Assembly: GCA_028715115.1 (NCBI GenBank)
Contig: JAQUSN010000002.1
Location: 68,944-132,943, forward strand
Length of the DNA: 64,000 bases
Source of the DNA: Patescibacteria group bacterium
GTDB lineage: Bacteria > Patescibacteriota > Patescibacteriia > UBA2591 > UBA4787
Direction of reading: 5' to 3'
The notes beneath the pieces are model-generated. The model was given only the letters and a program-made list of their open reading frames with translations. It had not been told where the DNA came from and did not search any database. The translations under genes and the position numbers were made by a program. This document shows, piece after piece, positions 5,555-46,509 of this stretch. Within the stretch, counting starts at the first letter, position 1; the number at the start of each line of letters is the position of its first letter.

Positions 5555-5597
5555 TTTTTCGCTTGCCAAATCCTTTAAAATACTTTAAAATTAATAT

Positions 5598-7163
5598 ATG
5601 TCGACTAATCCACAATCTAGCCACGAATGTCCAGACCACGAAAACGAGGTTATCTCTTTCGGTGAGGCTAATTATCGTAATATGCACCGCCGTTTTGGTA
5701 TTAAAACGCCGGATCGCCGGTCGCATATGTATTTGGTTGGTAAAACCGGAGTTGGTAAATCAACTTTATTAGAAAATACGATTTATCAAGACCTTCAGCT
5801 GGGACATGGCGTGGCCATAGTTGATCCGCATGGTGATTTGGCTGAAAAGGTTTTAGATTTTGTTCCAAGTTGGCGAATTAACGATGTTATTTATTTTAAT
5901 CCGGCTGACGTTGAATGGCCGATTGCTTTTAATATTTTAGAGAGCGTTGATTCGACACATCGACACTTCGTTGCCTCTGGTTTAATCGGCGTTTTTAAAA
6001 AAATCTGGGCTGATTCTTGGGGCCCGCGTTTAGAATATGTTTTGCGTAATGCCATCTTAGCGCTTTTAGAATATCCGGGCAGTACTTTGCTCGGCATTAT
6101 GCGGCTTTTAATCGACAAAGAATTTAGAAAAAAAGTCGTCGGCCGATTAACCGATCCAATAGTTAGATCTTTTTGGGTAGAAGAATATTCTAAGTATCCG
6201 GACAGATTTCAGGCGGAAGCCATCGCGCCGATTCAAAATAAAGTCGGGCAATTTTTATCCATGAACTTGATTCGCAATATCGTCGGCCAGGTAAAATCAA
6301 AAATCGATATTCGCGAAATCATGGATAAAAAGAAAATTCTCATTATGAATTTAGCTAAGGGCAGAATCGGTGAAGATGCATCGTCTTTAATGGGCGCGAT
6401 GATGATTACAAAATTACAAATGGCGGCCATGAGCCGGGTCGATATTGTCGAAAAGGACAGAAAAGATTTTTATCTCTACGTAGATGAATTTCAAAATTTT
6501 GCTACCGAATCATTCGCTAATATTTTATCCGAGGCGCGCAAATATCGTTTAAACCTAATTTTAGCCCATCAGTATATTGAGCAGCTAGACGAAAAGGTGA
6601 GCTCGGCTGTTTTTGGTAATGTGGGCACGTTGGTTTGTTTTCGTGTTGGCGCTGAAGATGCTGAATTTTTAGCCAAAGAGTTTACTCCTCAATTTGATGA
6701 AACCGATTTGGTCAACTTAGATAAGTTCGAGATTTATATTAAACTGATGATTGGCGGCATTACCTCAGAGCCTTTTTCAGCCAATACCTTACCGCCCTTA
6801 GGCAAGCCAGAGAATAATCATGATAAAATCATTCGGGTTTCACGAGAAAAATATGCCGAAAGCAAAAAGGTGGTCGAAGATAAAATCGTTCGTTGGACCG
6901 GCATGGAACCGCCCTCGACCGATCAGGCCAAATTCGAAGCCAAGTGCGAAGGTTGTGGCAATCCGGTTTTAATTCCTTTTATTCCCGACGGTGTTCGCCC
7001 GATTTTCTGTCGCAAATGTTTAAAAAAAATGAGAAAAGAAGATCAAGACAAGGTCGCAGCAGGTAAACAGCCAGATAACCTACCAACTGGTGAACTAAAG
7101 AATCAAACCGGATCTTTAGTACAATCAACTACCTCCGTACAATTAGAAAATAAACAAGAGTAA
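5598..7163 (+). CDS. VirD4/TraG/TraD-like coupling-protein-family ATPase (T4SS DNA-transfer domain) with C-terminal CxxC..CxxC zinc ribbon; soluble, no TM
   Basis: Walker A YLVGKTGVGKSTLL followed by IVDPHGDL. Walker B region FYLYVDEFQNF. LILAHQYIEQL motif typical of the TraG/TrwB/HerA-FtsK clade. Zn ribbon CEGCGN..CRKC at the C-terminus. Confidence 0.5.
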   Translation: MSTNPQSSHECPDHENEVISFGEANYRNMHRRFGIKTPDRRSHMYLVGKTGVGKSTLLENTIYQDLQLGHGVAIVDPHGDLAEKVLDFVPSWRINDVIYFNPADVEWPIAFNILESVDSTHRHFVASGLIGVFKKIWADSWGPRLEYVLRNAILALLEYPGSTLLGIMRLLIDKEFRKKVVGRLTDPIVRSFWVEEYSKYPDRFQAEAIAPIQNKVGQFLSMNLIRNIVGQVKSKIDIREIMDKKKILIMNLAKGRIGEDASSLMGAMMITKLQMAAMSRVDIVEKDRKDFYLYVDEFQNFATESFANILSEARKYRLNLILAHQYIEQLDEKVSSAVFGNVGTLVCFRVGAEDAEFLAKEFTPQFDETDLVNLDKFEIYIKLMIGGITSEPFSANTLPPLGKPENNHDKIIRVSREKYAESKKVVEDKIVRWTGMEPPSTDQAKFEAKCEGCGNPVLIPFIPDGVRPIFCRKCLKKMRKEDQDKVAAGKQPDNLPTGELKNQTGSLVQSTTSVQLENKQE

Positions 7164-10731: not shown

Positions 10732-11517
10732 ATGTTTAGACTTTTTGGCCGTAGCGACAAAGAACTTAAACTAGGTGACTATAAAAATATTTGGACAAAA
10801 TTTTGTTTTCTTGATGAGAGCGGGAGCCTTAATGATACCAATGCGCCATTCTTCAGTGTCGGTCTGATTAAATGTTCCCAACCATATTATTTGAATAGTT
10901 TACTTACCTATAAAAGAAATGAAAAAAATTTCCACGATGAATTGAAATTTAATAAGTTGTCTCGTAAAAATATTAATTTTGCTAAATTAGCTCTAGAATG
11001 TTTTTTAAACACGAAGAGTATTTGGTTTTATTCTTATCTGGTAGATAAAAAAGGGGTTTATTTTCTTCATGAATTTGATTCTAACCCATGGATTGCGTAT
11101 GAAGAGATATCAATTAAGTTAATTGAAGCAGCATTAGCTCCAAGCGAGATATTAATAGTTATTGCTGATCACGTAACTACTCCTCCGAATATTAAATATG
11201 AGGTTGATGTAAAGAAGAAAATTAATGAACAACATCAATGTTTGTCTGTGGCGGGAGTGTGTAGGATTGATTCAAGAGCCAACGACATGCTACAATTAGT
11301 TGATTTAATGATTGGTGCAATAAATTATGATTTAAAATTAAAGTCGAATTTAGTTAGTGGCGATAAGAATAAAATAGAGTTTCTTGAATATTTTAAAACT
11401 ATTTTAGGGATTAAAGATTTTGTATGTGGTTTTAAAAATAAACAGTTTAATATTTTTGTAGATAAAGACGTTAAAAAAAGACCTTTTGGTCAAAATGAAA
11501 AAGAGCCATCGTCCTAA
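10732..11517 (+). CDS. DUF3800-like protein
   Basis: N-terminal FLDESGS motif, the D-E-S-G signature of DUF3800. 261 aa. Weak call. Confidence 0.35.
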   Translation: MFRLFGRSDKELKLGDYKNIWTKFCFLDESGSLNDTNAPFFSVGLIKCSQPYYLNSLLTYKRNEKNFHDELKFNKLSRKNINFAKLALECFLNTKSIWFYSYLVDKKGVYFLHEFDSNPWIAYEEISIKLIEAALAPSEILIVIADHVTTPPNIKYEVDVKKKINEQHQCLSVAGVCRIDSRANDMLQLVDLMIGAINYDLKLKSNLVSGDKNKIEFLEYFKTILGIKDFVCGFKNKQFNIFVDKDVKKRPFGQNEKEPSS

Positions 11518-26277: not shown

Positions 26278-29200
26278 ATGCAACTTAAAAAGAATTTTCA
26301 ATTTAAAATAATTACCGGAGCAGTTTTACTGACCATATTTTGTTCAATATTCACTCCGGTTTTGTTTTATCCTCAAGTTGCCAAGGCTCAATGGGTGGTG
26401 ACAAATCCGCATGATTTTGTGAAAGACATTTTAGAAAAAATCGGCGAAGCGTTAAAAACTGCCGGCTATGTTGCTTATCGAAATTCTTTGAATTTAGTTT
26501 TAGGTCAGATGGCGCAACAAAGCGCTGAGTACTTAGCTACTGGTACTCCGGGGCAGAAGCCGATGTTTTTAAGCAGCTCTAAGTATTGGCTTGATCTTGG
26601 CGATAGCGTATTAGGAGATTTCATCGATACTACGGCCAAGTCGGGCGGTTTCCTTAATCAGAGCTTGTGTGACCCGATTGACCCGACCATTCGTTTTCAA
26701 ATGCTAGTTTCTCTTGATCCAAAATATCAAAAAATGACCTGGAATTCTGAAGCCCGCTGTTCTTTGTCACAAATAGCCGAACGAGCCAGAGAAATGGGAA
26801 AACAAAAATTAATTGATTTTGATGTTAATCTTACCGAAGGCCCGGTCGGCGGTTATAAATCAGATTTAGGGACTATAATTTTAGGCGATGGTCAGTTATC
26901 GCCCACTCAAAAAAAATTACTCTATGGCACCGTTGATAATAAAGGCAATTTTACTTATAAAGGAGTTATTGGCAATTTAATCGACATTCAAGATGAATTC
27001 AGCGCGTTTATTAAAGCAGAAGTTAATAACCAAGTTACCCCGGGCGCAGATATAATTAAAATGACCATAGAGCGGCTTAGTTCCAAGCTAGACGCTGATA
27101 TTTTACATGAGAGTGGGCCAACGGGAGCAAAATGGTGGCACAATTATGCCGTAACTTGTTTAGGCTATGATAAAAAAGAAAATTATTGCAGCGATGTTAA
27201 TTGCGTAACCTATTTTTGTGACACCACTCAGAGCGGTTGTTCTAATAATTTTGAACAGTGTACGCTCCGAACCCAAAGAGTTAATGATTACGCAAAAAAA
27301 ATCATTGACTGGGCTATGAGTTTAAAACAGATGATGAACGAGATTAATCCTGATGATTTTCAGCCTCCCGCTGCAGCCAGTCTTGAGGATTTAAGCAAAA
27401 TGTTTAATCCGGAAGGCAGTTCCGTTGGAGTCGCTTTGAGTTTAAACAGTAGTTTATTTGATAAACAGACTACCGCAGTAGAAAATTCTAAATTTTGGCA
27501 ATTGCTTCAAGGAAGAATTAACGACGTGACTAGCGCTATCTCCGGTTTAACAAAAACTCCATCAACCTTGGTCAGTGAAACTGCTCGCCAGTCGGTCGTC
27601 GAAGGAACGGCCAGTATTAAAACTGTGACTGGCGTAGCGCTAGCTGACGCGGTTGGCGTTTTTACTAACACCTTGATCAATAAAATGATCAAGAACGTAA
27701 TTTACGGCACCGGTCTTAATCCAGAGCTTAACCCAGATCTTAGTAATAATTTGACTGGCGGTGGTTTTTCTGCGCCAGGGCAGAAAGAAGCCAGGGCGAT
27801 GTTCTCAGATTTATCGACCGTTGTTTTAAAAAGGGGAGACAAATTAGATATTTTATCTGAGTTAAGCGCTTGTCCGACAGATAGTAAATATGCCTTGCCG
27901 AATAATTGCACCATTGATTCCGGATTGGTTCGCGCCGCCGAAGCATCAATGACGATTAAGGATGCCATTGATCAGGGATTTTTGCATGGCGATTGGGTAG
28001 TTGGCGGATATAACGTTAAAGATACGAATCGAGATTATGCAACTCGCTATAGCTTGAATAACATCAAAAAAATGCGTCGCAACAGAATCATGCCAGTAGG
28101 TTTAGAAATTGCCGCGCAGAAAATTAATCGAGGCGAATTAGAAGACGCGAAAATAACTCTGTCGCGAATAGTTAATGAATTTAACAAGGTTAATGATAGC
28201 GGAAATTGTGACGGCGGCACTGCTTCGCCGTTTTGTCATCTAGTTGATCCCAATTGGGTCGTTAAGGCTCCGGAAATGAAATGTAAAACAGTTGCTTATT
28301 CAGCTATACCAATGGCCAACAGTAACCAGCGCCAAGAGATTTGTATTGATATGCAAGATTGCATCCACGAAAACGATCGGGGAGAATGTGATACCTATGC
28401 TTACTGTACAAAAGAAAAAAACATTTGGCGGATGGGTGGAGATATTTGTGAATCCCAAAATGCCACCTGCCAAACTTATACCCGCGTTAGAGATGGCCAA
28501 CAATTTTCTTATTTAAATAATACCTTAGACTTTAGCGGTTGCGATCAAAATAATGCTGGTTGCAAATGGTATTGCGATCGTTTTACTAAAGGCCTAGCGG
28601 CCAACGGTGAAAATACTTGGGCTTGTAAAGAGCCGGGAATTTCTTTGAGAAAAGTCGGTACACAGTGGACCGATGATAGCGATCCGTCAAATCATCTTTT
28701 CTTTAATAACAAGGTTTCGCTCTGCAGCTCTACGGCTGAAGGTTGTTCTCAGTTTATTCGTTTAAGTAATAATTCGGGTGTAAATATTTTAGCTAATGGC
28801 AGCTTTGAAATTTATCCAAGCACACAAACTTTTCCTGCCACCACCGTTGACGGCTGGATGGCTAAAACAAATAGCGGCACCTTACATAGTCAATTTATAA
28901 ACGATGGTGGTTTAGCTCGAACCGGAAATATTGTAGCCGGTATTGATTCGGCTCGCGACGATTGGGGCGGAGTGAAACTAGCGGTCGGATCAAACTTAGC
29001 AAGCTTTTTAGTCGACAATAATTCATATTTGATTTCGATTTGGGTCAACAACAAAGACCTTAACCGATCGCACAACATTCATCTTTTTGTTAGCACTAAC
29101 AGCGGTTGGAAGAGTTTATATAATAAAATCATTCCTAGAAATTCTGGTTGGCAAAGATTGATTTATCCTTTTGTTTATCGCGTTGGCGATGGTTATAATT

Positions 29201-32200
29201 TTAATAATTTAAGCTGGGAGGTTGCAAACGACACTGGCGCTCAGGGCCTTGTTTATTTTGACGATCTTCAATTGGAACCAGGCACGAGCGTTTCTTCTTA
29301 TAAAGATTATGGCGCTGTAAATCAAAGTTATTTTAAAAAAGCGCCAGACTTCATGAAGTGTTATAATCGTTATAGCGACGGCACCCTTAATACTTCTGAC
29401 GACGATTTGAATTGTTCAAATTATGTTTTGGCTTGCAAAAAAAATGAAGCTGGCTGTGAAATGTATCGGCCGATTAATGGAGATCCGTCTTTACCAGCCG
29501 TGGCTCGTGACGCTGATCGTTGTCCGGCAGAATGTTCTGGTTATCAAATTTTTAAGGAATCGGCGACTAACTTCTCAAGCGGCGTCTTAGCGGTTAATTT
29601 AATTCCTTCAACTGCCCGAACTTGTGTGGCCAATGAAACAGGCTGTGAAGAGTTTACCAATTTAGATCAGTTTTCGCAGGGCGGCGAGGGTAAGGAATAT
29701 TACAATTCAATTCGACCCTGTCGCAAGCCAGATGATGGTTGTTCATATTTTTACACTTGGGTTGGATCTGACACCAGTGGTTATCAATTAAAGCGTTATT
29801 ATTTGCAGAAGAGAGGTGTTATTAAACAAGGAGAAGCAGGTTTAGGCCCGGATGAATTTTTATCAGACTTTGATGCATTAAAATTATGGGGTGAGTGCAA
29901 TAGTGAAGATGATATTTTTTCTAATCCACGCTGCAAACAATTCTTTGATAATAGTGGCAACAGTTATTTGCGACTTTATGAAAATACAATTTCTTGCTCC
30001 AACGATTGCCATCCACTCCGAAAAACAACAGCTGTAACGCAAGAATTTTGTCAGACCACTACGCAGTCGGGAGTGACCATTCCTGGCATGAGTTATAGCA
30101 ACGGCATTTGTACTTATATGGCCATTCCTTCCGAGGGTACGACTTGCAATAGAGTTAATGTTGGTTGTCGTGAATATAAGGGCAACGCTGCGGAAAATAT
30201 TCGGCAAATTTTCTTAGAAGATTTTGAAAGCGGTGTTGGCGATTGGAAGGTGGCGCCGCAAAACGCTCTTATTCGCTCCAGCACAGACTCTATTTATGCC
30301 GGCGGTCATTCGGCGCAGGTTATAAATTCGAATAAAGTTGCAACAACTATTTCAAAAGACGTATCTAATGAGATTACTGTGGGCAAAGAATATCAATTGT
30401 CTTTATGGGTTAAGGGCATCACCGGCGATATTTCTTTTGGCATTACTGGTAATCAGGTTTCGTCTCCGATAAATGTGGGAGATGTAAATGATTGGCGATT
30501 GATAACCTTCAGCCCTTATTATATTTCTACATTGCCAACAGGAACTATTGAAATAGCAATTCAGGCAACACCCAACTTAAGATCTGATGTGGCACCCGTT
30601 ACTTACAGTTTTGTCATTGATAATATTTTACTTAAAGAAGCGCAGAGCAGTCTTTATTTGATAAAAGATTCTTGGACTACGCCGCAAGTTTGCGACAAAA
30701 ACGAACAGGGTCAAAATATGCCAGGGTTTATGATCGGTTGCGCGGCCTATAAAGATACCGAGAACGCCGATAATTATTTTAAAACATTTAGTTATTTGTG
30801 TTCGGAAAAATCAGTCGGCTGCGAGGCCATGATCGAAACCCATAATTCTTCAAATCCTTTTGCCCAGAGCTTTAATGATGATAAGTATACGGTTCCGGCC
30901 GACAGTATTGAATATTTAATTAATGATGGCAAAAAAACTTGCGCGGCCGCAGACAAGGGGTGTGAACGTTTTGGTTTGCCAAGTTTGTCGGCATCTAATC
31001 AGGGCGGACAAATTACTTATAAAGTTACTGGCTGGACTGATAAATATTTAAAAAACGACCCAGATCTTTACACACAAAAACCGATTTTATGTTCTGATAA
31101 TGGTATGGCTTGCGAAGAATTTATGGCTAAAGGATCTAATACGTCGGTTTATTTTAAAGATCCGGGCGATAAGGCTTGTGAATACAAGGCTAAAATTTCC
31201 GAAACAGATGAATATGGCTGGTATAAACAGGGTACCAATGAACCGTGTTATTCAGATTCGCCGGTTAATGGATTCTATAAAATAAAAAAGACAACCGACA
31301 ACAACTATCTGGGCTTTGCCGGACTTTGTCCGAGCAGTCAATCTAGTTGTACGAAATTTACCGATCCCCTAGATAACAAATCTTATTATTATTTAAATAA
31401 CAGCAAATTAGATAAATCTTCTTGCCAAGGTGTTAGCCAAAAAGAAGGGTGTATTTTAATTAACGATACCAATCAATCAGCTAAGACTTATAGCAGCAAG
31501 GCTACTTATAATAAAAGCAAAGATAAGCAATATGCGGCCGTTGGACCGATTAATTGCGAAGTTCAAGCTGATTGTTCTAATCCCGAAAACTTAGAAACAG
31601 ATTTTTGTAAATATTGTAAAATTTGCGTTAACGGCACCAATACGGGCGGTTCTTGTTTAAATGATGGTGGTTGTCCGGGTGGATTTTGTCAGCAAATACT
31701 TAATAATGATTCTAACACAATCGTAAAGGTTCAGCGCGATAGGACTTGTGGCGAATGGTTAAGCTGTGCTGGTGGGCAGATGGTTTGGGATAAGTCGGCT
31801 AATGAATATAAAAATCAATGTACCAGTCTAATTCGTTGTCAGGGTTTGGTCGGTTCGGGCGATGAGGAGCGCTGTAGTAATTTTATTCTTGATACGCCGC
31901 AACAATTAACAGAATCTCTTTATAAGAGTCGAAATGTTTCTTGGGCTGATATGGATTATTCGGGTTATTCTTTGTACGAATTTTATCCAGTTGATACTTT
32001 AACTCCTTATAATTATGGTACGTCGGATCAACCTGACTATAAGTTAACCTATAAGGACAACATTCAAGATCATGGTGTTAATAATTTAACCTGTTCATCA
32101 ACGCAATCATGTCCGACAGGAATGGATTGTCAGACCGGACATTGTGTCATTCCTAAAACTTGCCAGGCCTATCCAGAACAAGATTCGCCATTTATTTCAG

Positions 32201-34293
32201 CCAATCAGATCGGTGATTATTATTCAAAAGTTAATTTCTGTGAAGATGCCAACGGAGATGGTTGCCAATGTTTTTATCAAAAAGCAGAATATGGTAATAA
32301 GTTAGCTACTAAATATTTTAATCTAGATACCGACTTAACCGCTAAAAAGGTCTGTACTCAGGGTGATCCTGGTATGTTGGGGAAATTATGCGATAATCTT
32401 GATAAATGTGGGCCAGACCCGGAAGATGGACAGCCAGATGTGCGCCGTTGTGAAGAACCATCTAATATTATTAAAAATTACGGTCAAAGAGACTTTTGCT
32501 TGGAGCCTGATTTAACTAAATTAGACAAGGTTAATGCATGTTTAACCTGGTGGCCGGCTAATGGCAGTATTGGTGATTCGGACATTAATAATATGTTCCA
32601 AAGCGCGGGTTATTTCCCGAGTACAAGCCGACAATGGTATTGTGTGGGGAATACGACTACACCGTCTTCTTTAAGTGGCGTTGGTTTTTTCCCAGATCAA
32701 CAAGACGCCGTAAATACTTGCGGGCATGGTTATATTAACAGAAATCCATATTATTATTCACGAAACCCGGATCAATACAAAGGATTTAAGCTAACTTCAG
32801 GAAGCTATACATGGACGTGGCCCGTTACAAATAATCAAAGTTTTGGCAGTCAAGCTTTCACCTATTGGCACACCGGCATACAAAATATTACTTTAGGAAT
32901 GATAAGCGGTGTTTCAGCAACTGTTTGCGGTGATTTTGGTGGTACAAATACTAAATGCGGCGCTTGCGGCGATATTGGTGGTGGTTCTGGGGGAGTCAAA
33001 CCTCTTACTTGGGATAGCGTAAGTAATTGTTTCGTTTATCAACAAGCTGCTAGACCTCAAGACAGTACTCCATCGGGAGCTACGCCAGAAGAGTTTATTT
33101 TTAAGGTTTGTTTTAATGGTAGTTCGGTTGATTCTAGATTAATTAAGGCAGAATTAAATTTGAATAATGCTGGTAATACTTTTGGCGATGCCCTTTGGGG
33201 ATTGATTGAAGATGTAGGGTTTGATTTTAAAAGCGGATGTTCAACCATTGCCAGAATAGCAAGTAATGGCGATACCAAAGCCTATACCAATAAGATAAAT
33301 AGCATGGATGAAAATAAAAATTATACCGGACAAGGGGTAGACAATAAAACAGACGTTAATCAATGTAAGCCTTGGGGCGCAGTAAACTATAATTCGGATA
33401 AAACTAATTTTATTAATACTAATACTGCCGGCACTTGCTGGATGCAACAGGTAGCAAGTGATTCGATTTATTCTAACCGCGATGTTCTAGAGAATAATTT
33501 ATTTGCTAAAAGTTTCGAGATATATACTTATGACAGAAATACTTTTAGCTATGTATCTTCTTCGGGAGATGATCGGACGGATATTAATTCTAATTCTACT
33601 AAGGCGCCGAAAGTTGCCGCGGTTTGTTTTAATCAGCAAAATGGCTCTTCGTCAATTTGTCGCGATGGCAACAACAACCCCATTGCCGGTTTAACAATTG
33701 GTAATACTTATAATCTGAATATTGTTCGAGAACAAGCTTATTATGCGGCGATAAAATTTTATGCTTGGGCTGACGCAAATCAAATGCCAGTTCGCGAAAT
33801 AGCTATAGATTGGACCGGTGGGAGTAGGCCCTCTATCTTTGACAACAACAGCATTATTGCTAAAAATCATAAAGATGCTTGTCCAACAAAATGTATGCGA
33901 GATGGTTTTTGTAGGGACAAAAATAATAATAAAGTTAGTTGTGATAGTATTGATGCGATAGTTTGCAATAATATTAATGATTGTCCTGCTGGTGGTGTGG
34001 GGCAAGGGCCTGCGACTTGCGAAATAACTAATTTTGGAGATTCATATGATGCTTGCGCGACTCAATTTTGGCAGTTTAATCATCTTTATATTTGTACCAA
34101 AGATAGTGATTATTATGATCCGCAACGAGGGGCCTGCATTTTTAAGCCCAGGGTTTTCGTAAGAGACAATTGGGGTTGGTGTAGTGGTGGAGTTTATGTC
34201 GGGAACACTCCTTGTACTAGTACTCCTGGAATATCTTTTGCCAAAGAAATAATAATTTATCCACCTAGCACTAGCGGTCAGCAACAAGAGTAA
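26278..34293 (+). CDS. giant (2671 aa) secreted Cys-rich surface protein with two CBM-like beta-sandwich modules; putative adhesin of the downstream T4SS-like system
   Basis: Single uninterrupted ORF with an N-terminal signal/TM. Recurrent G-C-E/R-x-F/Y Cys-rich repeats. Two galactose-binding-like modules (about 28800..29280 and 30210..30650). Stop is 3 nt before the VirB6-like gene. Confidence 0.6.
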   Translation: MQLKKNFQFKIITGAVLLTIFCSIFTPVLFYPQVAKAQWVVTNPHDFVKDILEKIGEALKTAGYVAYRNSLNLVLGQMAQQSAEYLATGTPGQKPMFLSSSKYWLDLGDSVLGDFIDTTAKSGGFLNQSLCDPIDPTIRFQMLVSLDPKYQKMTWNSEARCSLSQIAERAREMGKQKLIDFDVNLTEGPVGGYKSDLGTIILGDGQLSPTQKKLLYGTVDNKGNFTYKGVIGNLIDIQDEFSAFIKAEVNNQVTPGADIIKMTIERLSSKLDADILHESGPTGAKWWHNYAVTCLGYDKKENYCSDVNCVTYFCDTTQSGCSNNFEQCTLRTQRVNDYAKKIIDWAMSLKQMMNEINPDDFQPPAAASLEDLSKMFNPEGSSVGVALSLNSSLFDKQTTAVENSKFWQLLQGRINDVTSAISGLTKTPSTLVSETARQSVVEGTASIKTVTGVALADAVGVFTNTLINKMIKNVIYGTGLNPELNPDLSNNLTGGGFSAPGQKEARAMFSDLSTVVLKRGDKLDILSELSACPTDSKYALPNNCTIDSGLVRAAEASMTIKDAIDQGFLHGDWVVGGYNVKDTNRDYATRYSLNNIKKMRRNRIMPVGLEIAAQKINRGELEDAKITLSRIVNEFNKVNDSGNCDGGTASPFCHLVDPNWVVKAPEMKCKTVAYSAIPMANSNQRQEICIDMQDCIHENDRGECDTYAYCTKEKNIWRMGGDICESQNATCQTYTRVRDGQQFSYLNNTLDFSGCDQNNAGCKWYCDRFTKGLAANGENTWACKEPGISLRKVGTQWTDDSDPSNHLFFNNKVSLCSSTAEGCSQFIRLSNNSGVNILANGSFEIYPSTQTFPATTVDGWMAKTNSGTLHSQFINDGGLARTGNIVAGIDSARDDWGGVKLAVGSNLASFLVDNNSYLISIWVNNKDLNRSHNIHLFVSTNSGWKSLYNKIIPRNSGWQRLIYPFVYRVGDGYNFNNLSWEVANDTGAQGLVYFDDLQLEPGTSVSSYKDYGAVNQSYFKKAPDFMKCYNRYSDGTLNTSDDDLNCSNYVLACKKNEAGCEMYRPINGDPSLPAVARDADRCPAECSGYQIFKESATNFSSGVLAVNLIPSTARTCVANETGCEEFTNLDQFSQGGEGKEYYNSIRPCRKPDDGCSYFYTWVGSDTSGYQLKRYYLQKRGVIKQGEAGLGPDEFLSDFDALKLWGECNSEDDIFSNPRCKQFFDNSGNSYLRLYENTISCSNDCHPLRKTTAVTQEFCQTTTQSGVTIPGMSYSNGICTYMAIPSEGTTCNRVNVGCREYKGNAAENIRQIFLEDFESGVGDWKVAPQNALIRSSTDSIYAGGHSAQVINSNKVATTISKDVSNEITVGKEYQLSLWVKGITGDISFGITGNQVSSPINVGDVNDWRLITFSPYYISTLPTGTIEIAIQATPNLRSDVAPVTYSFVIDNILLKEAQSSLYLIKDSWTTPQVCDKNEQGQNMPGFMIGCAAYKDTENADNYFKTFSYLCSEKSVGCEAMIETHNSSNPFAQSFNDDKYTVPADSIEYLINDGKKTCAAADKGCERFGLPSLSASNQGGQITYKVTGWTDKYLKNDPDLYTQKPILCSDNGMACEEFMAKGSNTSVYFKDPGDKACEYKAKISETDEYGWYKQGTNEPCYSDSPVNGFYKIKKTTDNNYLGFAGLCPSSQSSCTKFTDPLDNKSYYYLNNSKLDKSSCQGVSQKEGCILINDTNQSAKTYSSKATYNKSKDKQYAAVGPINCEVQADCSNPENLETDFCKYCKICVNGTNTGGSCLNDGGCPGGFCQQILNNDSNTIVKVQRDRTCGEWLSCAGGQMVWDKSANEYKNQCTSLIRCQGLVGSGDEERCSNFILDTPQQLTESLYKSRNVSWADMDYSGYSLYEFYPVDTLTPYNYGTSDQPDYKLTYKDNIQDHGVNNLTCSSTQSCPTGMDCQTGHCVIPKTCQAYPEQDSPFISANQIGDYYSKVNFCEDANGDGCQCFYQKAEYGNKLATKYFNLDTDLTAKKVCTQGDPGMLGKLCDNLDKCGPDPEDGQPDVRRCEEPSNIIKNYGQRDFCLEPDLTKLDKVNACLTWWPANGSIGDSDINNMFQSAGYFPSTSRQWYCVGNTTTPSSLSGVGFFPDQQDAVNTCGHGYINRNPYYYSRNPDQYKGFKLTSGSYTWTWPVTNNQSFGSQAFTYWHTGIQNITLGMISGVSATVCGDFGGTNTKCGACGDIGGGSGGVKPLTWDSVSNCFVYQQAARPQDSTPSGATPEEFIFKVCFNGSSVDSRLIKAELNLNNAGNTFGDALWGLIEDVGFDFKSGCSTIARIASNGDTKAYTNKINSMDENKNYTGQGVDNKTDVNQCKPWGAVNYNSDKTNFINTNTAGTCWMQQVASDSIYSNRDVLENNLFAKSFEIYTYDRNTFSYVSSSGDDRTDINSNSTKAPKVAAVCFNQQNGSSSICRDGNNNPIAGLTIGNTYNLNIVREQAYYAAIKFYAWADANQMPVREIAIDWTGGSRPSIFDNNSIIAKNHKDACPTKCMRDGFCRDKNNNKVSCDSIDAIVCNNINDCPAGGVGQGPATCEITNFGDSYDACATQFWQFNHLYICTKDSDYYDPQRGACIFKPRVFVRDNWGWCSGGVYVGNTPCTSTPGISFAKEIIIYPPSTSGQQQE

Positions 34294-34296
34294 ATT

Positions 34297-37155
34297 ATGA
34301 AGTTTAACTGGATAAAAAAAATCAACTTCCGCAAAGGGCTGATAATTTTATTAGTTGCCGTTTTTGTTTTGTCCATTTTACCTCGCGTCATTAATGCAGC
34401 CGACTCCGCCGAGCCAGCCGATCAATCTTCAGTTAATAGTATAGAACATCTTTCTCTAACCGTTAGCGGATTGATAACTAGCGCAGTGGTAGCGGCAATT
34501 GGTAAATTAATGGTCGTGGTTATTCGAGTTTTGGTCAGCTTGGCTCAGTATAATGATTTTCTGAAGTCGCCAGTAGTTGATATAGGCTGGAGACTGATTC
34601 GTGATCTTTGCAACATGCTATTTATAGTAATTCTTTTGGTAATTGCTTTTGCGACAGTATTACAGAGAGAACAATATTCTTATAAAAGAATGTTGGGCGC
34701 GCTGGTTCTGGCGGCGGTGTTGGTTAATTTTTCGAAATTAATCTGCGGAGTTATTATTGATTTTTCGCAAGTAGTCATGTTGACCTTTGTCAACGCGATA
34801 AAAGACGCGGCCGAAGGCAACTTTGCCGAATTGATTGGTATTAAGCAGCTTCTTTCCATGACGGCAGATCCTAGTAAACCTTTGACTATAAATTCTTTTG
34901 AATTATCAGTTACTTATTTATTGGCTTTAATTTTTTCTATTGTCGGTTTAGTTATCTTTATTGTTGTTACGGTAATAGTTCTTTTAAGAATAATTATACT
35001 TTGGTTTTTGGTCATGCTTTCACCGGTTGCTTTTATCGCCACAATTTTGCCGCGAACTAATGCTTATGCAAGTCGATGGTGGGATAAGTTTACCAATCAA
35101 GTAATCGTGGGCCCGGTTTTAATGATTTTTATTTGGTTATCGCTATCTATTGTTCAACAAAGTATGAATGACGGAGGTATGTTAAACCATTTAAAGATGG
35201 GAAGTTCTTTACAAAAAACTACTGATTTATTAGGAAATGCCGTGGGCGTGAATAATAATGCAATAGCAGCGGGCGTGGCCGATATTGGTCAGGCGCCTAA
35301 TGTTTTAGGATTTATGGTCGGTATTGCTTTGTTGGTTGGATCGGTGGCTATGGCTCAAGAATTGTCTGCCGCTGGATCTGGTATGGCCATGAACGCGGTT
35401 AATAAAATGAAACAAATCGGCGCCGGCGCTGCGGCTATGCCAGGTAGGTTGGGCGGCAAGGCCTTAAAAGCCGTAGGTCAAAGCGCCGTGGAACGATTTG
35501 AGGCAAAAACGGGTATACCTATTCAACCTAAACACTACAGAGCTGCTTGGGAGAATCGTAAAAGAATAGTACGCGGTCAAAGAGCCGCTCAAATGATGGA
35601 GAAAATGGAGGGGCATCGATTCCTTCGTCCGCCAACGGAATTCGTTAATAATATGTTTTCTACAAAAGGATGGAAAGCTGGCGTTCAGAGAATGTTTGGA
35701 GTTGATGTAGTTAAAAGAAATCAAGCTGCTGAGCTTAATAGACAGCTTGAAGAGCAAAGAGCTAAAATAAACGGAAGATTTACCAGCGATGAAATCGCTA
35801 AGAGCATTACTCAATTAGGAGGCGAGACAGGAGAAGAAGGAGAAATAGGCATGTTAGCAAGAGAACTAGAAGTCTATAAGAGTAAGTTAACCGAAGAAGA
35901 CCGAACTAAATTAGCAAAGGGAGAAAAAATAGAGGAGAAAAAACAGGCTAAAATTGATCAATTGACAGATTTAATTGATTTAAAACGAGCCCGACTGGAG
36001 GAGTTTGAAAACTATAATAGCCAAGCATGGAGAGAACAAAAAGCAAAAGAAGCTGGGGAAGCCGGGGCACAACTTGAGGGAAAAAGAGCAGAACTAAAAG
36101 CCGCAGAAGCCGAGGAAAACCCAGATCAAGCAGATCAAGAAAAAATTAAACAATTAAGAAGAGAAATCGATACATTAGAAGCCCATAAACAGCAGCTTGA
36201 CTTAGAGGCAAATATTATTATAACTCCGGAGCAAAAAGAGCAGGTTTCGGCCGAATTAGCGAAAATAGGTAAGAAATTTGGCGTTAAGATTGACGAGGCA
36301 GACGAAAAGAATCTCCAAAAACAATTAAGAGATTTATCAACGAAAAGAGATAAATTGCGCGTTGAAGGAGAGGTTATTATGCCTACCAGCATGCCATATG
36401 AAGATCAGGCCACGATAAACGCCGCTATATCTCAAGAATCGAAAAATTTACAAGGCATAGAGGATGCTGATGAGTTAGTTACTTTATATCAGGTAGCCAA
36501 AGATAAAAAAGATTTAATTAAAATGAGAGCTATTATTTTGAAATTGACCGAAAATAGAGACTTAAATGAATTACTGGATAAATTGGGGCATGAACAAAAT
36601 TATAAGGGACTTCAAGAATTAATCGAAGAAGATTTTGTTAAGCATATTGGCGGTTCGGCACAAGCGCATTATTCTTTTGGAAACGACGTTACGATGTTGA
36701 ATAAACATGAGGCGGCCTTTGAATTTAGTGGCGCCTATATAAGGGGTACTAATGGAAAATTAAGGACTACTACCGACAAGGAACACAGAAACTTTGTTTT
36801 AATAGAATCAGGTAAGCGAGACAGAGAAACCTTGTTTCGTAAAGATTGGTGGGGGTGGTTAATAGGCAAGCGAGTTGATCCGAATACTGGCAAACGAGTC
36901 CCGATTTGGACTCAAACGATTGAGCAGATCGTTAGAAGGGATTTAGGTATGTTAAAAACAGAGATAGATAAGTCTAGGCTTAATTCCGAGTTAGAATCAT
37001 GTTTCTCCCATCCAGAATTTATAGCTCATTTTCAGGATTTGCAGCAACGGTTTGTTGAAGAGGGCAGAAAGGGCGCAGTTGAACAGATAAAGGGAGTTAT
37101 TAAACACTTGCAGATGAAACAAGGCCAATATTGGCCGACTATAGAAGAAAAATAA
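34297..37155 (+). CDS. VirB6/TrbL/PrgH-like polytopic membrane protein with long charged coiled-coil C-terminal domain
   Basis: Signal peptide (..RVINA/ADS). At least 6 TM helices in the first about 330 aa. About 600-aa E/K-rich C-terminal extension. Position immediately upstream of VirB3/VirB4-like genes. Confidence 0.5.
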   Translation: MKFNWIKKINFRKGLIILLVAVFVLSILPRVINAADSAEPADQSSVNSIEHLSLTVSGLITSAVVAAIGKLMVVVIRVLVSLAQYNDFLKSPVVDIGWRLIRDLCNMLFIVILLVIAFATVLQREQYSYKRMLGALVLAAVLVNFSKLICGVIIDFSQVVMLTFVNAIKDAAEGNFAELIGIKQLLSMTADPSKPLTINSFELSVTYLLALIFSIVGLVIFIVVTVIVLLRIIILWFLVMLSPVAFIATILPRTNAYASRWWDKFTNQVIVGPVLMIFIWLSLSIVQQSMNDGGMLNHLKMGSSLQKTTDLLGNAVGVNNNAIAAGVADIGQAPNVLGFMVGIALLVGSVAMAQELSAAGSGMAMNAVNKMKQIGAGAAAMPGRLGGKALKAVGQSAVERFEAKTGIPIQPKHYRAAWENRKRIVRGQRAAQMMEKMEGHRFLRPPTEFVNNMFSTKGWKAGVQRMFGVDVVKRNQAAELNRQLEEQRAKINGRFTSDEIAKSITQLGGETGEEGEIGMLARELEVYKSKLTEEDRTKLAKGEKIEEKKQAKIDQLTDLIDLKRARLEEFENYNSQAWREQKAKEAGEAGAQLEGKRAELKAAEAEENPDQADQEKIKQLRREIDTLEAHKQQLDLEANIIITPEQKEQVSAELAKIGKKFGVKIDEADEKNLQKQLRDLSTKRDKLRVEGEVIMPTSMPYEDQATINAAISQESKNLQGIEDADELVTLYQVAKDKKDLIKMRAIILKLTENRDLNELLDKLGHEQNYKGLQELIEEDFVKHIGGSAQAHYSFGNDVTMLNKHEAAFEFSGAYIRGTNGKLRTTTDKEHRNFVLIESGKRDRETLFRKDWWGWLIGKRVDPNTGKRVPIWTQTIEQIVRRDLGMLKTEIDKSRLNSELESCFSHPEFIAHFQDLQQRFVEEGRKGAVEQIKGVIKHLQMKQGQYWPTIEEK

Positions 37156-37175
37156 TTTCGTATTTTATATAAATC

Positions 37176-39293
37176 ATGGCCTCCGAATTAATTAATTCTG
37201 AAAAATTAAATCAGCTGAAAAGGGAACTTTTTTTAGATGAAGGTTTTTATAATGGTTTAATTAAAAAATACCGTCAGAATCAAAAATTATTAGAAGATTT
37301 TTTGAAACAAAATCCTAGTTTAAGCAATATTGATCCCAGATTTTTTCAGGAAGTTCAGGATATGCTATTAATGTTAAAATGGTATTCATTTAATTATTTA
37401 ACCGACCAAGAAATCATAGAGATGTTTAGGAATCATGTTAGTGTCGTTCTAAATGATGATACTTTCCCGATTGAAGAAGCGCTGAAAATAGCTTTCTTGG
37501 GTATGTCGATATTAAACGATCGCGACGTTCTAAAGAAGCAAATTAAGGAAGCTTTATTGCAGAATAAGGAAAAAATAACCAGTCAATTAATTAAATTAAA
37601 AGATTCCAGCGTTGAGGGAACGATTGGCAATTGGTTACAGTTATATAATTCGGTTGTTGGGGTTGAGCTGGTTGATAGTTTAAAATTAGCAGAATTTTTT
37701 GTTAAAAATAAAAATTTTACGGCCCTAATGGATTTAGAGGCCGGAAAAATTAAAAAACTATTAGCTCTTTATGAAAAACTAAAATTATCATCCTTAACCC
37801 CTGAGGGCCTAGAAGAGGAAGAATTAGAAGAGGCCGGAGAAGGTCGTGTAATTTTAATGACCGGAACCGGCGCTAAAGAAGTTTATGATATCGAGGGAGA
37901 CAAAAAAGAAGGACTCGTAAAAGAAGAGCTATTAACGCCAGAAACAAAAGCAGCTATAGCCGTTGCCTCGCCGTCAACAATAAAGGAAAATTTAGTGGTT
38001 ACACCTATAGTTAATCAAGCTAAAGAGTTCGTTAAAGATTTGGAAAATATGAATTTGCCAAATTCATCCGAATTTACAAATAATGTTATCTCGACAAAAA
38101 CAGAACCTGATTTTGAAAAAATAATTCAAAATATCGTTGGACAGGCCGGCCTGTCTTTTACCGACGAGAATCTAAAGACCAGGTTTATTGGTCTCATTAC
38201 TTCTTATTTAAAAGGCGTACGAAAAGAATTAGACTTACGCGACGCTTTAATGCGCGGTGAAAAAGTGGGCGGTATGGGTTATGATCAACAAAAAATTACG
38301 GCAATTATGAATATTTTAGCCGGTAGCCGGATCGAAGAAAAAGAAAGCATGCAAAAAGAAACTACCAAACCAGCCCTAGCCGAAGGATTAACTTCGCCGA
38401 TAGAAATTATTAATCCAGTAACGCCTGATTTATCTAGAGAGCCAGGCAAATTATTAGAAGAAGGAGAAGACGCTTTATTAACTGGATCGACGCAAAAGAC
38501 ATCAGACAATATAGAAGTGCAACAAGAAAAATTTTCTTCAGGTTCGCTTGCGCCCGTTGTTGATGATAGTAAAATACCGGAAAACGTTTCTTCGTCTTTT
38601 GAAAATATAGTAACATCCGAAGAAGAGCCGATTAAACAGCCTCCGGCAGAAGATTTTTTGGCAAAATTTGACTTGTCGTCGGCATTTGGTTCTGATAAAA
38701 CCGAAGAAGCCGATCAGGGAATAAAATCACAAGAAGCAAGCGATATGAACATTGATGCTTCGATTGAAGATTTGAATTCCCAACTAGCTGCTAATAATGT
38801 TTTACCGACAGAAGAGGCTAAGCCAACAGAACTTGTCGAGCCCGCGTCTATTTCGGAACCAGAGCAGAAAATTGTCGAGCCCTCAGATGGTGCTATTAAA
38901 AATATCTATCGTGCTCCGGAGCCGGAAGAAGCGCCTCAGCCGCCCATAGAAGAGGTCAGGGTAACCCCAAGAGCCTATGGCCCGGTTGACGAGCTTAGAA
39001 GTCTAACCTTAGAAGATTGGCGACGTTGGGGAGGTGTGGGTGAAGCAGTAAAACTTATTTTAGATAAAATTAATTTATTAGCAGAAGAATCTTTGACTAA
39101 AAAATCTGAAGGCATCGCCGCCTGGAAAGGCTCAGAAATAAACAAAATGTATTTGGATATAGGTACCGAGGCAATTAATAATGGATTGTCGGTTGAGCAA
39201 GCTATTGAAAAAAGGAAAAGTGCTAATTTACCGACTTTAACCATTGACGAATTTAATGCTATTTCGGAAATAAATCAAAAACTACGTTTTTAA
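37176..39293 (+). CDS. hypothetical acidic protein (T4SS-cluster accessory)
   Basis: 705 aa, no TM, with an E/P/S-rich low-complexity central region. Sits within the operon. Confidence 0.4.
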   Translation: MASELINSEKLNQLKRELFLDEGFYNGLIKKYRQNQKLLEDFLKQNPSLSNIDPRFFQEVQDMLLMLKWYSFNYLTDQEIIEMFRNHVSVVLNDDTFPIEEALKIAFLGMSILNDRDVLKKQIKEALLQNKEKITSQLIKLKDSSVEGTIGNWLQLYNSVVGVELVDSLKLAEFFVKNKNFTALMDLEAGKIKKLLALYEKLKLSSLTPEGLEEEELEEAGEGRVILMTGTGAKEVYDIEGDKKEGLVKEELLTPETKAAIAVASPSTIKENLVVTPIVNQAKEFVKDLENMNLPNSSEFTNNVISTKTEPDFEKIIQNIVGQAGLSFTDENLKTRFIGLITSYLKGVRKELDLRDALMRGEKVGGMGYDQQKITAIMNILAGSRIEEKESMQKETTKPALAEGLTSPIEIINPVTPDLSREPGKLLEEGEDALLTGSTQKTSDNIEVQQEKFSSGSLAPVVDDSKIPENVSSSFENIVTSEEEPIKQPPAEDFLAKFDLSSAFGSDKTEEADQGIKSQEASDMNIDASIEDLNSQLAANNVLPTEEAKPTELVEPASISEPEQKIVEPSDGAIKNIYRAPEPEEAPQPPIEEVRVTPRAYGPVDELRSLTLEDWRRWGGVGEAVKLILDKINLLAEESLTKKSEGIAAWKGSEINKMYLDIGTEAINNGLSVEQAIEKRKSANLPTLTIDEFNAISEINQKLRF

Positions 39294-39368: not shown

Positions 39369-39788
39369 ATGCAGTTTATTGTTCCTCAATTTATCGACAT
39401 TGAACCTAAAATTATCGGGCCGGTTACGCCACGGCAGTTTATTATTTTAATTATTACCGGTGCGTTTATTTTTGTCGCTTATAAATTATCTGATTTTTCT
39501 TTATTTATTATCGAAGCGGTAGCTTTATTAGGCCTAGGAGGGACTCTAGCTTTTTTGAAAATAAACGGCCAACCGGTTCACTATTTTTTATTAAACTTAA
39601 CCCAGACTTTTAAACGACCAATGTTAAGAATTTGGAGAAAAGATTTTATTATGGCAAAAGAATTAGCGGTTAAAGAAAAAGTAAAGATAGCGCCGGTAGC
39701 TATTCCGCGTAAAACGCTTTCTAATGCCCGGCTTTCAAATTTATCAATTTTAGTTGATACGGGCGGAATGTATCATGAGGAGGTTTGA
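39369..39788 (+). CDS. VirB3/PrgI-like small two-TM T4SS protein
   Basis: 139 aa. Two TM helices around PRQFIILIITGAFIFVAYKL and FIIEAVALLGLGGTLAFL. Directly precedes the VirB4 N-domain, as PrgI precedes PrgJ. Confidence 0.45.
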   Translation: MQFIVPQFIDIEPKIIGPVTPRQFIILIITGAFIFVAYKLSDFSLFIIEAVALLGLGGTLAFLKINGQPVHYFLLNLTQTFKRPMLRIWRKDFIMAKELAVKEKVKIAPVAIPRKTLSNARLSNLSILVDTGGMYHEEV

Positions 39789-39799
39789 TTTAAATTTTT

Positions 39800-40468
39800 A
39801 TGAGTAAAACTGCAGCCATTTCATCAACACAAAAATATTTAGACATCTCCGAGGTGCGAAGTGATTGTATTATTTTAAAAGACGGAACCATGCGAGCCGT
39901 GCTTTTGGTTTCTTCAATCAACTTTTCCTTAAAGTCAGAGGACGAGCAAAAGGCGACCGTTTCGGCTTATGTTCAATTTTTAAATACCTTGGAGCACCCC
40001 TTACAAATAATAATCCAGTCTCGTCGCCTGAATATCGAGAATTATTTAGTTGACCTAAATACCCGCCAAAAAGAGCAAACCAACAATTTATTAAAAGCTC
40101 AAATGGCCGAATATATTGATTTTATAAAAGAATTAGTCGATTTGGGAGAAATAATGACCAAGAAATTTTATGTTGTCGTGCCCTACAGTCCTATGGGTGA
40201 TAAAAAATTAAAATTTTTCTCCCGCCTATCGAGCGCTTTTACGGCCGGATCAGCTATTAGACTGAAGCGCGAGCGATTTGAGGCCTATCGAGAGCAATTA
40301 TTTAGAAGAGTTGATAATGTTAGTTCGGCGTTGTCGAGCATGGGGTTAAGAGTCGTGCCACTTGATACTCAAAGTTTAATTGAATTATTATATAATAGTT
40401 ACAATCCGGTCGAATCGGCAGTTCAAAAATTAGCCGAAATAAATAAGCTTAACATCGAAACGATTTAA
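39800..40468 (+). CDS. VirB4/TraE/PrgJ N-terminal domain, separate ORF ending in an in-frame TAA
   Basis: LDISEVRSDCIILKDGTMRAVLLVSSINFSLKSEDEQKATVSAYVQFLNTLEHPLQIIIQSRRLNIENYL matches the CagE/TrbE/VirB4 N-terminal pattern. Same reading frame as the next ORF. Confidence 0.55.
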   Translation: MSKTAAISSTQKYLDISEVRSDCIILKDGTMRAVLLVSSINFSLKSEDEQKATVSAYVQFLNTLEHPLQIIIQSRRLNIENYLVDLNTRQKEQTNNLLKAQMAEYIDFIKELVDLGEIMTKKFYVVVPYSPMGDKKLKFFSRLSSAFTAGSAIRLKRERFEAYREQLFRRVDNVSSALSSMGLRVVPLDTQSLIELLYNSYNPVESAVQKLAEINKLNIETI

Positions 40469-40471
40469 TTT

Positions 40472-45207: not shown

Positions 45208-45225
45208 TCGTCAAATTTTTATATC

Positions 45226-46506: not shown

Positions 46507-46509
46507 ATT

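Follow-up and report, generated by a model that had tools for sequence, protein, structure and literature searches.

What does a coupling-protein-like ATPase do when its gene lies among housekeeping genes, far from any secretion operon? A gene at positions 5598 to 7163 (+ strand) of a 64,000-nucleotide (nt) stretch of Patescibacteria DNA (contig JAQUSN010000002.1 of assembly GCA_028715115.1; hereafter, the window) raises this question, as the same stretch also holds a cluster of type IV secretion genes. The original prediction, made from the sequence, described the gene as an orphan VirD4/TraG-family-like ATPase that could be either the coupling protein of the downstream system or a HerA-like DNA translocase unrelated to secretion. 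Our analyses favor a different answer: the ATPase is probably the soluble motor of a core two-part Patescibacteria translocase that is no obligatory component of the secretion system and whose other part is a membrane protein of the DUF8128 family.

The open reading frame (ORF) is a real gene, judging from its more than 8,000 homologues and from an identical protein on three public contigs; assemblies GCA_028686935.1 and GCA_028713815.1 carry this identical protein. The best 120 homologues are 59 to 84% identical and come from Patescibacteria groups, Komeilibacteria and Uhrbacteria among them. The following parts of the gene were assigned from Pfam and NCBIfam matches, Foldseek searches, and an AlphaFold2 model with its confidence measure, the predicted local distance difference test (pLDDT).

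5598 to 7163, + strand: gene for a coupling-protein-like (VirD4/TrwB-type) soluble ATPase, ATG start, 521 amino acids (aa)
5739 to 5765, + strand: Walker A motif (P-loop) GKTGVGKST, residues 48 to 56
5952 to 6284, + strand: all-alpha insertion of seven helices in the modeled secondary structure, residues ~119 to 229
6471 to 6500, + strand: Walker B motif YLYVDEFQNF, residues 292 to 301
6555 to 6575, + strand: LILAHQY motif, residues 320 to 326, inside the TraG-D_C match
6930 to 7034, + strand: predicted CxxC-x17-CxxC treble-clef zinc domain on a flexible linker, residues 445 to 479 (PF23477, TIGR04272)
7077 to 7160, + strand: C-terminal tail, predicted to be disordered, residues 494 to 521 (pLDDT, <50)

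All three motifs named in the original prediction (Walker A, Walker B, and LILAHQY) are present: across 58 aligned homologues, G48, K49, T50, G51, G53, and K54 of Walker A, the Walker B stretch L293 to F301, and H324, Q325, and Y326 of LILAHQY are invariant, and the window ATPase keeps every invariant column of the alignment. The predicted lack of N-terminal transmembrane helices also stands, since the maximum of the 19-residue Kyte-Doolittle mean (1.37) stays under the usual threshold of ~1.6; only ~40 residues precede the P-loop. What had been called a C-terminal CxxC..CxxC ribbon is indeed an appended zinc module, but one that corresponds to a treble-clef CxxC-x17-CxxC domain (C450-x2-C453-x17-C471-x2-C474), a type for which zinc binding is reported in small proteins of M. 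mazei (PMC12704099). This domain recurs in 118 of the 120 closest homologues. The homologues' C-terminal tails differ in length and sequence, and a "DNLP" string in the tail of the window protein was rejected as a conserved motif, being found in only 2 of 118 tails. Sequence and model together describe a RecA-like nucleotide-binding domain that is intact for catalysis and contains an all-alpha insertion, plus a zinc domain on a flexible tether.

Profile searches place the ATPase among the type IV coupling proteins (VirD4/TrwB). It scores above the Pfam cutoffs for TrwB_AAD_bind (PF10412; 40.1 bits versus 20.5, residues 40 to 352), T4SS-DNA_transf (PF02534; 28.0 bits versus 20.1), and TraG-D_C (PF12696; 28.6 bits versus 22, residues 292 to 358), and its zinc domain matches Pfam zf_Tbcl_2 (PF23477; 38.0 bits versus 27, residues 445 to 479) and NCBIfam TIGR04272 (CxxC-x17-CxxC; 38.8 bits versus 36). 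In contrast, it remains under the Pfam cutoffs for DUF87 (19.7 bits versus 23.2) and FtsK_SpoIIIE (PF01580; 12.5 bits versus 24, E = 0.096). The NCBIfam models of conjugative ATPases are also not reached: TraD models give 19 to 58 bits against cutoffs of 366 to 648 (SXT_TraD, 58 versus 366), the CD1115 VirD4-like model (NF045973) gives 40.8 bits against 250, making the protein a nonmember, and the VirB4 model TIGR00929 gives 18.4 bits against 643, on which grounds a VirB4 identity was rejected. Sequence matches in the PDB are confined to TrwB and DotL.

The predicted fold leads to the same family. The AlphaFold2 model, built from 58 sequences (pLDDT, 84.6; predicted template modeling score, 0.78), has a RecA-like core with the seven-helix insertion (residues 119 to 229) between core strands, at the site that the all-alpha domain occupies in coupling proteins, and a zinc module at residues 446 to 487 (pLDDT, ~88 to 92) behind a linker whose residues 438 to 442 fall below 50. 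In Foldseek searches, TrwB ranks first (E = 5.7e-11; template modeling score [TM-score] on the target, 0.61 to 0.66), the alignment spanning ~410 to 440 columns against TrwB chains of 412 to 427 residues; DotL and Cagbeta come next, ahead of HerA and the VirB4 C-terminal domain. The modeled N terminus is a short two-strand beta-hairpin only, which leaves no space for a HerA-type N-terminal barrel. Thus, the comparison of coupling-protein with HerA/DUF87 profiles came out on the coupling-protein side, with the all-alpha domain present, and the VirD4/TraG/TrwB reading is borne out by both profiles and folds. HerA and FtsK identities were rejected on profile scores and fold ranking; the HerA-like alternative of the original prediction names the wrong family, although a job other than secretion may still hold. 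The N-terminal transmembrane domain of coupling proteins is absent from the ATPase, and its relatives obtain a membrane helix from DUF8128, either as a separate protein or by fusion.

Across the family's gene neighborhoods, an association with DUF8128 (PF26449) recurs. A scan of species-representative genomes returned at least 600 matching stretches, 80 loci of which were kept for counts, and in 68 of these 80 a ~500-aa DUF8128 membrane-protein gene lies directly upstream of the ATPase gene, its stop codon often overlapping the ATPase start codon. Three distant loci (L003, L005, and L006) illustrate the arrangement: the PF26449 gene is immediately 5' of the ATPase gene and is itself preceded by a gene for a ~370-aa protein with Sigma70_r4 and HARE-HTH domains. 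Such a sigma-like gene is directly upstream of DUF8128 at 44 of 61 informative genome loci and 41 of 63 metagenome loci. When the search was reversed, starting from DUF8128 in metagenomes, the ATPase was adjacent at 49 of 72 informative loci. Moreover, among the 150 best cluster representatives, 56 to 60 are DUF8128-ATPase fusions of 750 to 1,130 aa, which connect the two proteins by a gene-fusion ("Rosetta stone") argument. By these sequence comparisons, the family usually takes the form of two adjacent genes or of one fused gene, with DUF8128 as the conserved partner. The label "orphan" therefore fits the ATPase gene locally, within the window, but not the family to which it belongs.

Two side observations concern the proteins of this module. 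The sigma-like protein (~350 to 380 aa) carries sigma-70 region 4 followed by HARE-HTH or RNA-polymerase-delta-like domains and is encoded, for example, at positions 3126 to 4232 of L005 and at 85 other loci; in ~70% of loci its gene immediately precedes DUF8128. The zinc domain is missing from all 56 DUF8128-ATPase fusions searched for it; directly 3' of ATPase genes without a zinc domain, L056 (12132 to 12488) and L074 (11940 to 12272) each have a small ORF with two CxxC-x17-CxxC copies, suggesting that the domain can come as its own protein.

The model of DUF8128 (pLDDT, 80.8) consists of a long N-terminal hydrophobic helix (residues 18 to 57), alpha/beta domains (residues 60 to 403), and a disordered tail, which in 102 of 120 DUF8128 sequences (P0274 and homologues, e.g., L005, 4282 to 5844) ends in (A/P)PxNLP followed by I, F, or V. 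All 14 of its Foldseek matches in the PDB at E ≤ 0.005 are full-length TrwK/VirB4 chains of R388; 13 of them fall below 0.001 (best E = 1.5e-5), and the match that follows them has an E value of 0.1. The TM-scores of these alignments are low (0.28 to 0.38). Because full-length VirB4 is matched but the structure of its C-terminal domain (4ag5) is not, nor are other P-loop ATPases, we infer that the matched region is the VirB4 N-terminal domain, and the model points to a DUF8128 cytoplasmic domain that resembles it. The likeness is one of fold only, as DUF8128 has no sequence or profile similarity to the window VirB4, to the TrsD-like protein, or to any PDB sequence. DUF8128 and the ATPase would together have the layout of membrane anchor, VirB4-N-terminal-like domain, and ATPase, but with a VirD4-type motor. 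The idea that the zinc domain serves as a dock for the PPxNLP tail of DUF8128 was rejected, since the two features are uncorrelated (Fisher P = 0.15).

The ATPase is very strongly conserved. An exhaustive search returned 24,130 cluster representatives at E ≤ 0.001 and 7,028 at E ≤ 1e-30, and in 84 related loci the ATPase core is 60 to 77% identical to the window protein (median, 67%), compared with a median of 50% for alanyl-tRNA synthetase (AlaRS) in 16 of those loci. Sequence conservation of this degree, exceeding that of AlaRS, marks a core family of Patescibacteria. Gene order is likewise conserved, with a string composed of SecA, SecDF, the sigma-like gene, DUF8128, and the ATPase, followed by MnmA and AlaRS. 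In some genomes a further paralogue, more diverged than the first, lies close to it as a DUF8128 fusion or a tandem ATPase (L030, 11200 to 13695; L064, 147 to 2717; L045, 11857 to 13350; L059, 8259 to 9704). The record titles of many contigs between L007 and L086 ("uncultured Gammaproteobacteria," "Bdellovibrionales," "Planctomycetota") clash with their patescibacterial-looking gene content and are probably placeholder or misbinned labels.

These contexts bear on whether the protein could be a HerA-like or defense-associated ATPase, such as mad8 of the MADS system or the HerA half of a HerA-effector pair, and uninvolved in membrane translocation. PADLOC does report a mad8 match (E = 1.6e-19, 68.6 bits) and matches to HerA models (E = 1.7e-7), HerA structures figure in the Foldseek list (4d2i, E = 3e-10), and there is the weak match to DUF87. 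But that match does not reach the Pfam cutoff, HerA TM-scores are lower than those for TrwB, the neighborhood is without a nuclease, methyltransferase, Sir2, or other defense partner, and the partner that does recur, DUF8128, is membrane anchored. A conserved, near-universal family whose gene order is preserved shows the opposite of the distribution of defense genes, and a defense-system identity was rejected on context and conservation despite the mad8 match; the reading as a whole is very improbable. The MADS preprint gives no domain description for mad8.

Relatives in phages join the same two parts. The profile phrog_5156 (824 positions) covers both the ATPase (E = 2.8e-66) and DUF8128 (E = 7.9e-16), and gp156 of Bacillus phage G is an 825-aa fused homologue (E = 4.6e-18 for the DUF8128-like part and 1.2e-53 for the ATPase part). 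In the jumbo phage G (L167; JN638751.1, 87772 to 93336), gp156 follows gp153 (TrbL/VirB6-like), gp154, and gp155 (VirB4-like), the four together resembling a small secretion module. In the SPO1-like Bacillus phage SP8 (L168; MW001214.1, 98949 to 104459), there are genes for an Alp7A-like actin and for a 906-aa fused homologue, the latter followed by an overlapping gene for a Replic_Relax protein, an arrangement that looks like a plasmid-style DNA-handling module. By sequence, these contexts connect the ancestry of the DUF8128-ATPase architecture with modules for type IV secretion and DNA processing, and they are the main reason for favoring DNA as the substrate.

For this architecture, the following mechanism is proposed. 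The ATPase would most likely act as the motor of a membrane-tethered hexameric translocase, and its substrate is probably DNA. DUF8128 would hold the hexameric ring at the membrane in place of the transmembrane domain that the ATPase lacks; substrate binding, most likely of DNA or of a DNA-protein complex, would fall to the all-alpha and zinc domains; and ATP hydrolysis would drive the substrate toward a membrane conduit, for which the type IV secretion system (used facultatively), ComEC, or another channel are candidates. The module would be an inherited core function that is neither operon linked to the type IV secretion system nor an obligatory part of it. A bolder and more tentative version is that DUF8128 and the ATPase, with or without the zinc domain, form a near-universal housekeeping membrane translocase that is independent of type IV secretion, possibly the missing DNA-uptake motor or a device for other nucleic acid or protein transport, representing a deep-branching lineage with a VirB4-like N-terminal domain and a VirD4-type motor.

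The relation of this module to type IV secretion can be judged from the secretion cluster of the window, whose genes are as follows.

39369 to 39788, + strand: PrgI/VirB3-like gene (PF12666, 23.6 bits, under the cutoff of 27)
39800 to 40468, + strand: TrsD-like gene, 222 aa (NF041427 TrsD, E = 3.2e-9; matches N-terminal parts of VirB4 models)
40472 to 42442, + strand: VirB4 ATPase of the CD1110 family, 656 aa (NF045971, 338 bits versus a cutoff of 325; P-loop_TraG, E = 3.5e-28)
43966 to 47823, + strand: two type IV secretion pilin-domain genes (43966 to 45207 and 46510 to 47823; PF18895, 25.6 and 26.8 bits) with one unannotated gene between them

These genes (39.4 to 47.8 kb) lie 32 to 33 kb from the ATPase gene. 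The "about 20 kb" of the original prediction holds only for the start, at 26278, of the long operon whose last genes are the secretion genes; the VirB4 start, at 40472, is 33 kb downstream. VirB4 is split in the window, the TrsD-like gene being followed 4 nt later by the VirB4 gene (39800 to 42442). The protein encoded at 46510 to 47823 joins its pilin domain to an M23 peptidase domain (PF01551) and may be a pilin-tethered cell wall hydrolase. Directly before the secretion genes, on the same strand, are three very large genes (26278 to 39293; 2,671, 952, and 705 aa), the largest of which has a CBM_4_9 carbohydrate-binding domain; the other two match nothing in Pfam or NCBIfam. All three are candidates for surface or adhesin parts of the secretion operon.

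The principal rival to a DUF8128-ATPase translocase is that the protein is a true but detached coupling protein of this secretion system, docking on its VirB4/TrsD/PrgI complex and delivering substrates to it, a reading that we consider possible but clearly less likely. The coupling-protein fold and profile matches speak for it, the window cluster has no coupling protein of its own, the phage G homologue adjoins VirB6-like and VirB4-like genes, and a DUF8128 that resembles the VirB4 N-terminal domain could dock where VirB4 docks. Moreover, the best full-length NCBIfam match of the ATPase is to CD1115, and the window VirB4 belongs to the similarly named CD1110, two families that presumably go back to one kind of conjugative element. 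The window genome has both the ATPase and VirB4, and such co-presence in one genome is common. Yet no VirB4 homologue was detected within the 6- to 10-kb flanks of any of 160 related loci; conservation exceeds that of AlaRS; and the neighborhood is one of housekeeping genes.

Published surveys point in the same direction. Among 3,035 Patescibacteria genomes, 2,918 contain VirD4-like homologues (5,713 in total) and 2,417 contain VirB4, leaving at least 501 genomes with a homologue in which VirB4 was undetected; only 148 of the 5,713 homologues are near virB4, and the phylum has almost no relaxases (Quinonero-Coronel et al. 2025, PMC12102498). In Southlakia epibionticum ML1, whose secretion system is likewise reported to be without a coupling protein, the 921-aa SEML1_0293 is nonessential whereas the secretion genes are essential (PMC10633639). 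SEML1_0293 is a fused form directly 3' of a 349-aa "RpoS" gene, which is the gene order of the ATPase family, and is likely, by this order and by annotation, an orthologue of the window family; the "RpoS" gene, SEML1_0294, is the likely counterpart of the sigma-like gene and is essential, as is a second, more divergent paralogue, SEML1_0142 (PMC10633639). The second paralogues found near the first at some of our loci fit both the roughly two homologues per genome of the published survey and the essential SEML1_0142. Taken together, the conserved DUF8128 partner, the VirB4-free flanks, the wider distribution of the ATPase than of VirB4, and the nonessential SEML1_0293 leave a simple detached coupling protein of the downstream system unsupported. 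A role in replacing FtsK was rejected as well, since Southlakia has a true FtsK that is essential (PMC10633639).

Several points nonetheless weigh against the two-part translocase reading. The orthology of SEML1_0293 is taken from gene order and annotation, and its paralogue SEML1_0142 is essential. Distance from virB4 is compatible with coupling, as detached coupling-protein genes are common (PMC12102498), and the absence of VirB4 from metagenome-assembled genomes may in part reflect incomplete assemblies. The substrate is inferred from homology alone, and coupling proteins also move proteins. Finally, the 64-kb window is without a DUF8128 gene, such that loss of the partner in the window lineage is also possible.

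A further and rather unlikely explanation is that the ATPase is a ComFA-like cytoplasmic motor for DNA uptake through ComEC, with its zinc domain standing in for the zinc-binding motif of ComFA. At two loci, ComEC immediately adjoins DUF8128, downstream in L123 (1539 to 5410) and upstream in L102 (709 to 3555). Southlakia is naturally transformable and has annotated ComEC, a ComF-family protein, and DprA but not ComFA; ComEC, DprA, and SEML1_0293 are all nonessential, and DprA is five genes from SEML1_0293 (PMC10633639). However, two ComEC adjacencies in 166 loci are barely over chance (~0.4 expected, by a rough estimate), the recurrent neighbors include no competence gene, and the DUF8128-ATPase fusions are without the zinc domain that is to replace the ComFA motif. 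A linkage of the family to competence genes was rejected on these adjacency counts, and DNA uptake is kept as a low-probability rival to the DUF8128-ATPase translocase.

If the translocase has two parts, the window lineage must be reconciled with a missing neighbor. Neither a DUF8128 gene nor a sigma-like gene was detected in the window by tblastn or by hidden Markov model searches, including those at relaxed thresholds. In a neighbor-joining tree, the ATPases that lack a neighboring DUF8128 fall into three clades, which are nested among the ATPases that have one. The first comprises the window, L004, and L007, which share the order RuvX, glycosyltransferase, (DUF192), ATPase, LPG_synthase_TM, and AlaRS; the second adjoins NrdR, NrdD, and NrdG genes; and the third adjoins a HIT-family gene. 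Unlinked DUF8128 genes also occur, in the order sigma-like gene, DUF8128, GT1, and DUF4012 or beside DnaG, and one clade of them mirrors, in the DUF8128 tree, the position of the NrdDG clade in the ATPase tree, suggesting that the partner persists elsewhere in the genome once the genes unlink. No shared genes were found that tie the unlinked DUF8128 loci to the window genome. The trees and gene orders indicate that the window lineage is in a derived state, its ATPase gene having moved from DUF8128 into an envelope/AlaRS gene cluster, and that its DUF8128 is probably encoded elsewhere in the genome.

The surroundings of the gene agree with the original placement among envelope and tRNA synthetase genes: on one strand and with short gaps, the order is RuvX, a family-4 glycosyltransferase, DUF192, the ATPase, LPG_synthase_TM, AlaRS, and a YbaK-type editing protein. 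The G+C content near the ATPase (0.38) is the same as in the rest of the uniform window, and the other scanned ORFs are housekeeping genes (MetRS, MiaB, KsgA, ScpA, MreC, PBP2, GyrB, RadA, GatB, and MiaA); neither a relaxase nor an integrase was detected among the scanned ORFs, which include all those of at least 300 aa. Two further genes were observed in the window: one for an Elp3-like protein (197 to 1786, - strand) that combines radical SAM, Radical_SAM_C, and GNAT acetyltransferase domains, a tRNA-modification enzyme of a kind seldom seen in bacteria, and one for a DUF3800 protein (10732 to 11517), just 3' of the AlaRS and YbaK genes. A consensus scan also returned a possible promoter for the ATPase gene, which is weak evidence, as 27 such sites were found in the scanned region versus 20 expected by chance.

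5563 to 5591, + strand: promoter-like site TTGCCA-17-TAAAAT (10 of 12 matches), in the 43-nt gap 5' of the ATPase start codon

Detached coupling-protein homologues in Patescibacteria were already known, and their exaptation has been raised as a possibility (PMC12102498), as were the routine annotations on the proteins. We found no paper on DUF8128 in a literature search, the main text of PMC12102498 does not mention the zinc domain, and nothing that we found described the pairing and fusion of DUF8128 with the ATPase, the VirB4-like fold of DUF8128, the zinc module, how strongly the family is conserved, or the phage relatives, PMC12102498 not having been searched for fusions or conservation. 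Patescibacteria account for much of bacterial diversity, and their secretion system, essential in the one species tested, has no recognized coupling protein. Their coupling-protein homologue now appears to be one half of a two-part or fused machine whose other half may resemble the VirB4 N-terminal domain, and DUF8128 gains a first functional context from the pairing. The published question of whether the homologue has been put to another use can be turned into concrete experiments in transformable Saccharibacteria, and the machine may bear on how the VirB4 and VirD4 ATPases diverged.

Compared with known systems, the window ATPase is closest to TrwB (R388), VirD4, DotL, and Cagbeta, with which it has in common the RecA-like domain with Walker A and B motifs, the all-alpha insertion, and the TraG-D_C region. 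It differs from them in having no N-terminal transmembrane domain, in its extra zinc domain, and in sequence (~15% identity), and its family, unlike theirs, is unlinked to virB4 or a relaxase, vertically inherited, highly conserved, and partnered by DUF8128. Of the conjugation models, only the CD1115 VirD4-like one covers the greater part of the ATPase (residues 37 to 356 with profile positions 20 to 363 of 442). The Patescibacteria homologues of PMC12102498 and SEML1_0293 are likewise far from virB4, and SEML1_0293 is likewise beside a sigma-like gene; relative to this fused protein, the window ATPase is a split form that has the zinc domain and has lost adjacency to its partner.

HerA and FtsK belong to the same ATPase superfamily and share with the window ATPase the expected hexameric ring pump. 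The window protein differs from HerA in its DUF87 score, below the cutoff, and in having neither the N-terminal barrel nor a NurA partner, and from FtsK in its FtsK_SpoIIIE score, also below the cutoff, with the true FtsK a separate protein in Southlakia. VirB4 with its N-terminal domain has the same predicted layout of anchor, N-domain, and ATPase as DUF8128 plus the ATPase, but the motor of the latter matches coupling-protein profiles far better; the TrsD-VirB4 split in the window cluster parallels the split between DUF8128 and the ATPase. The fused architecture of the Patescibacteria proteins recurs in gp156 of phage G and in the SPO1-like phage proteins labeled "VirD4 component-like" (phrog_5156). 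These phage proteins are only 24 to 27% identical and are without the zinc domain, and they adjoin VirB6-like and VirB4-like genes in phage G and Replic_Relax in SP8.

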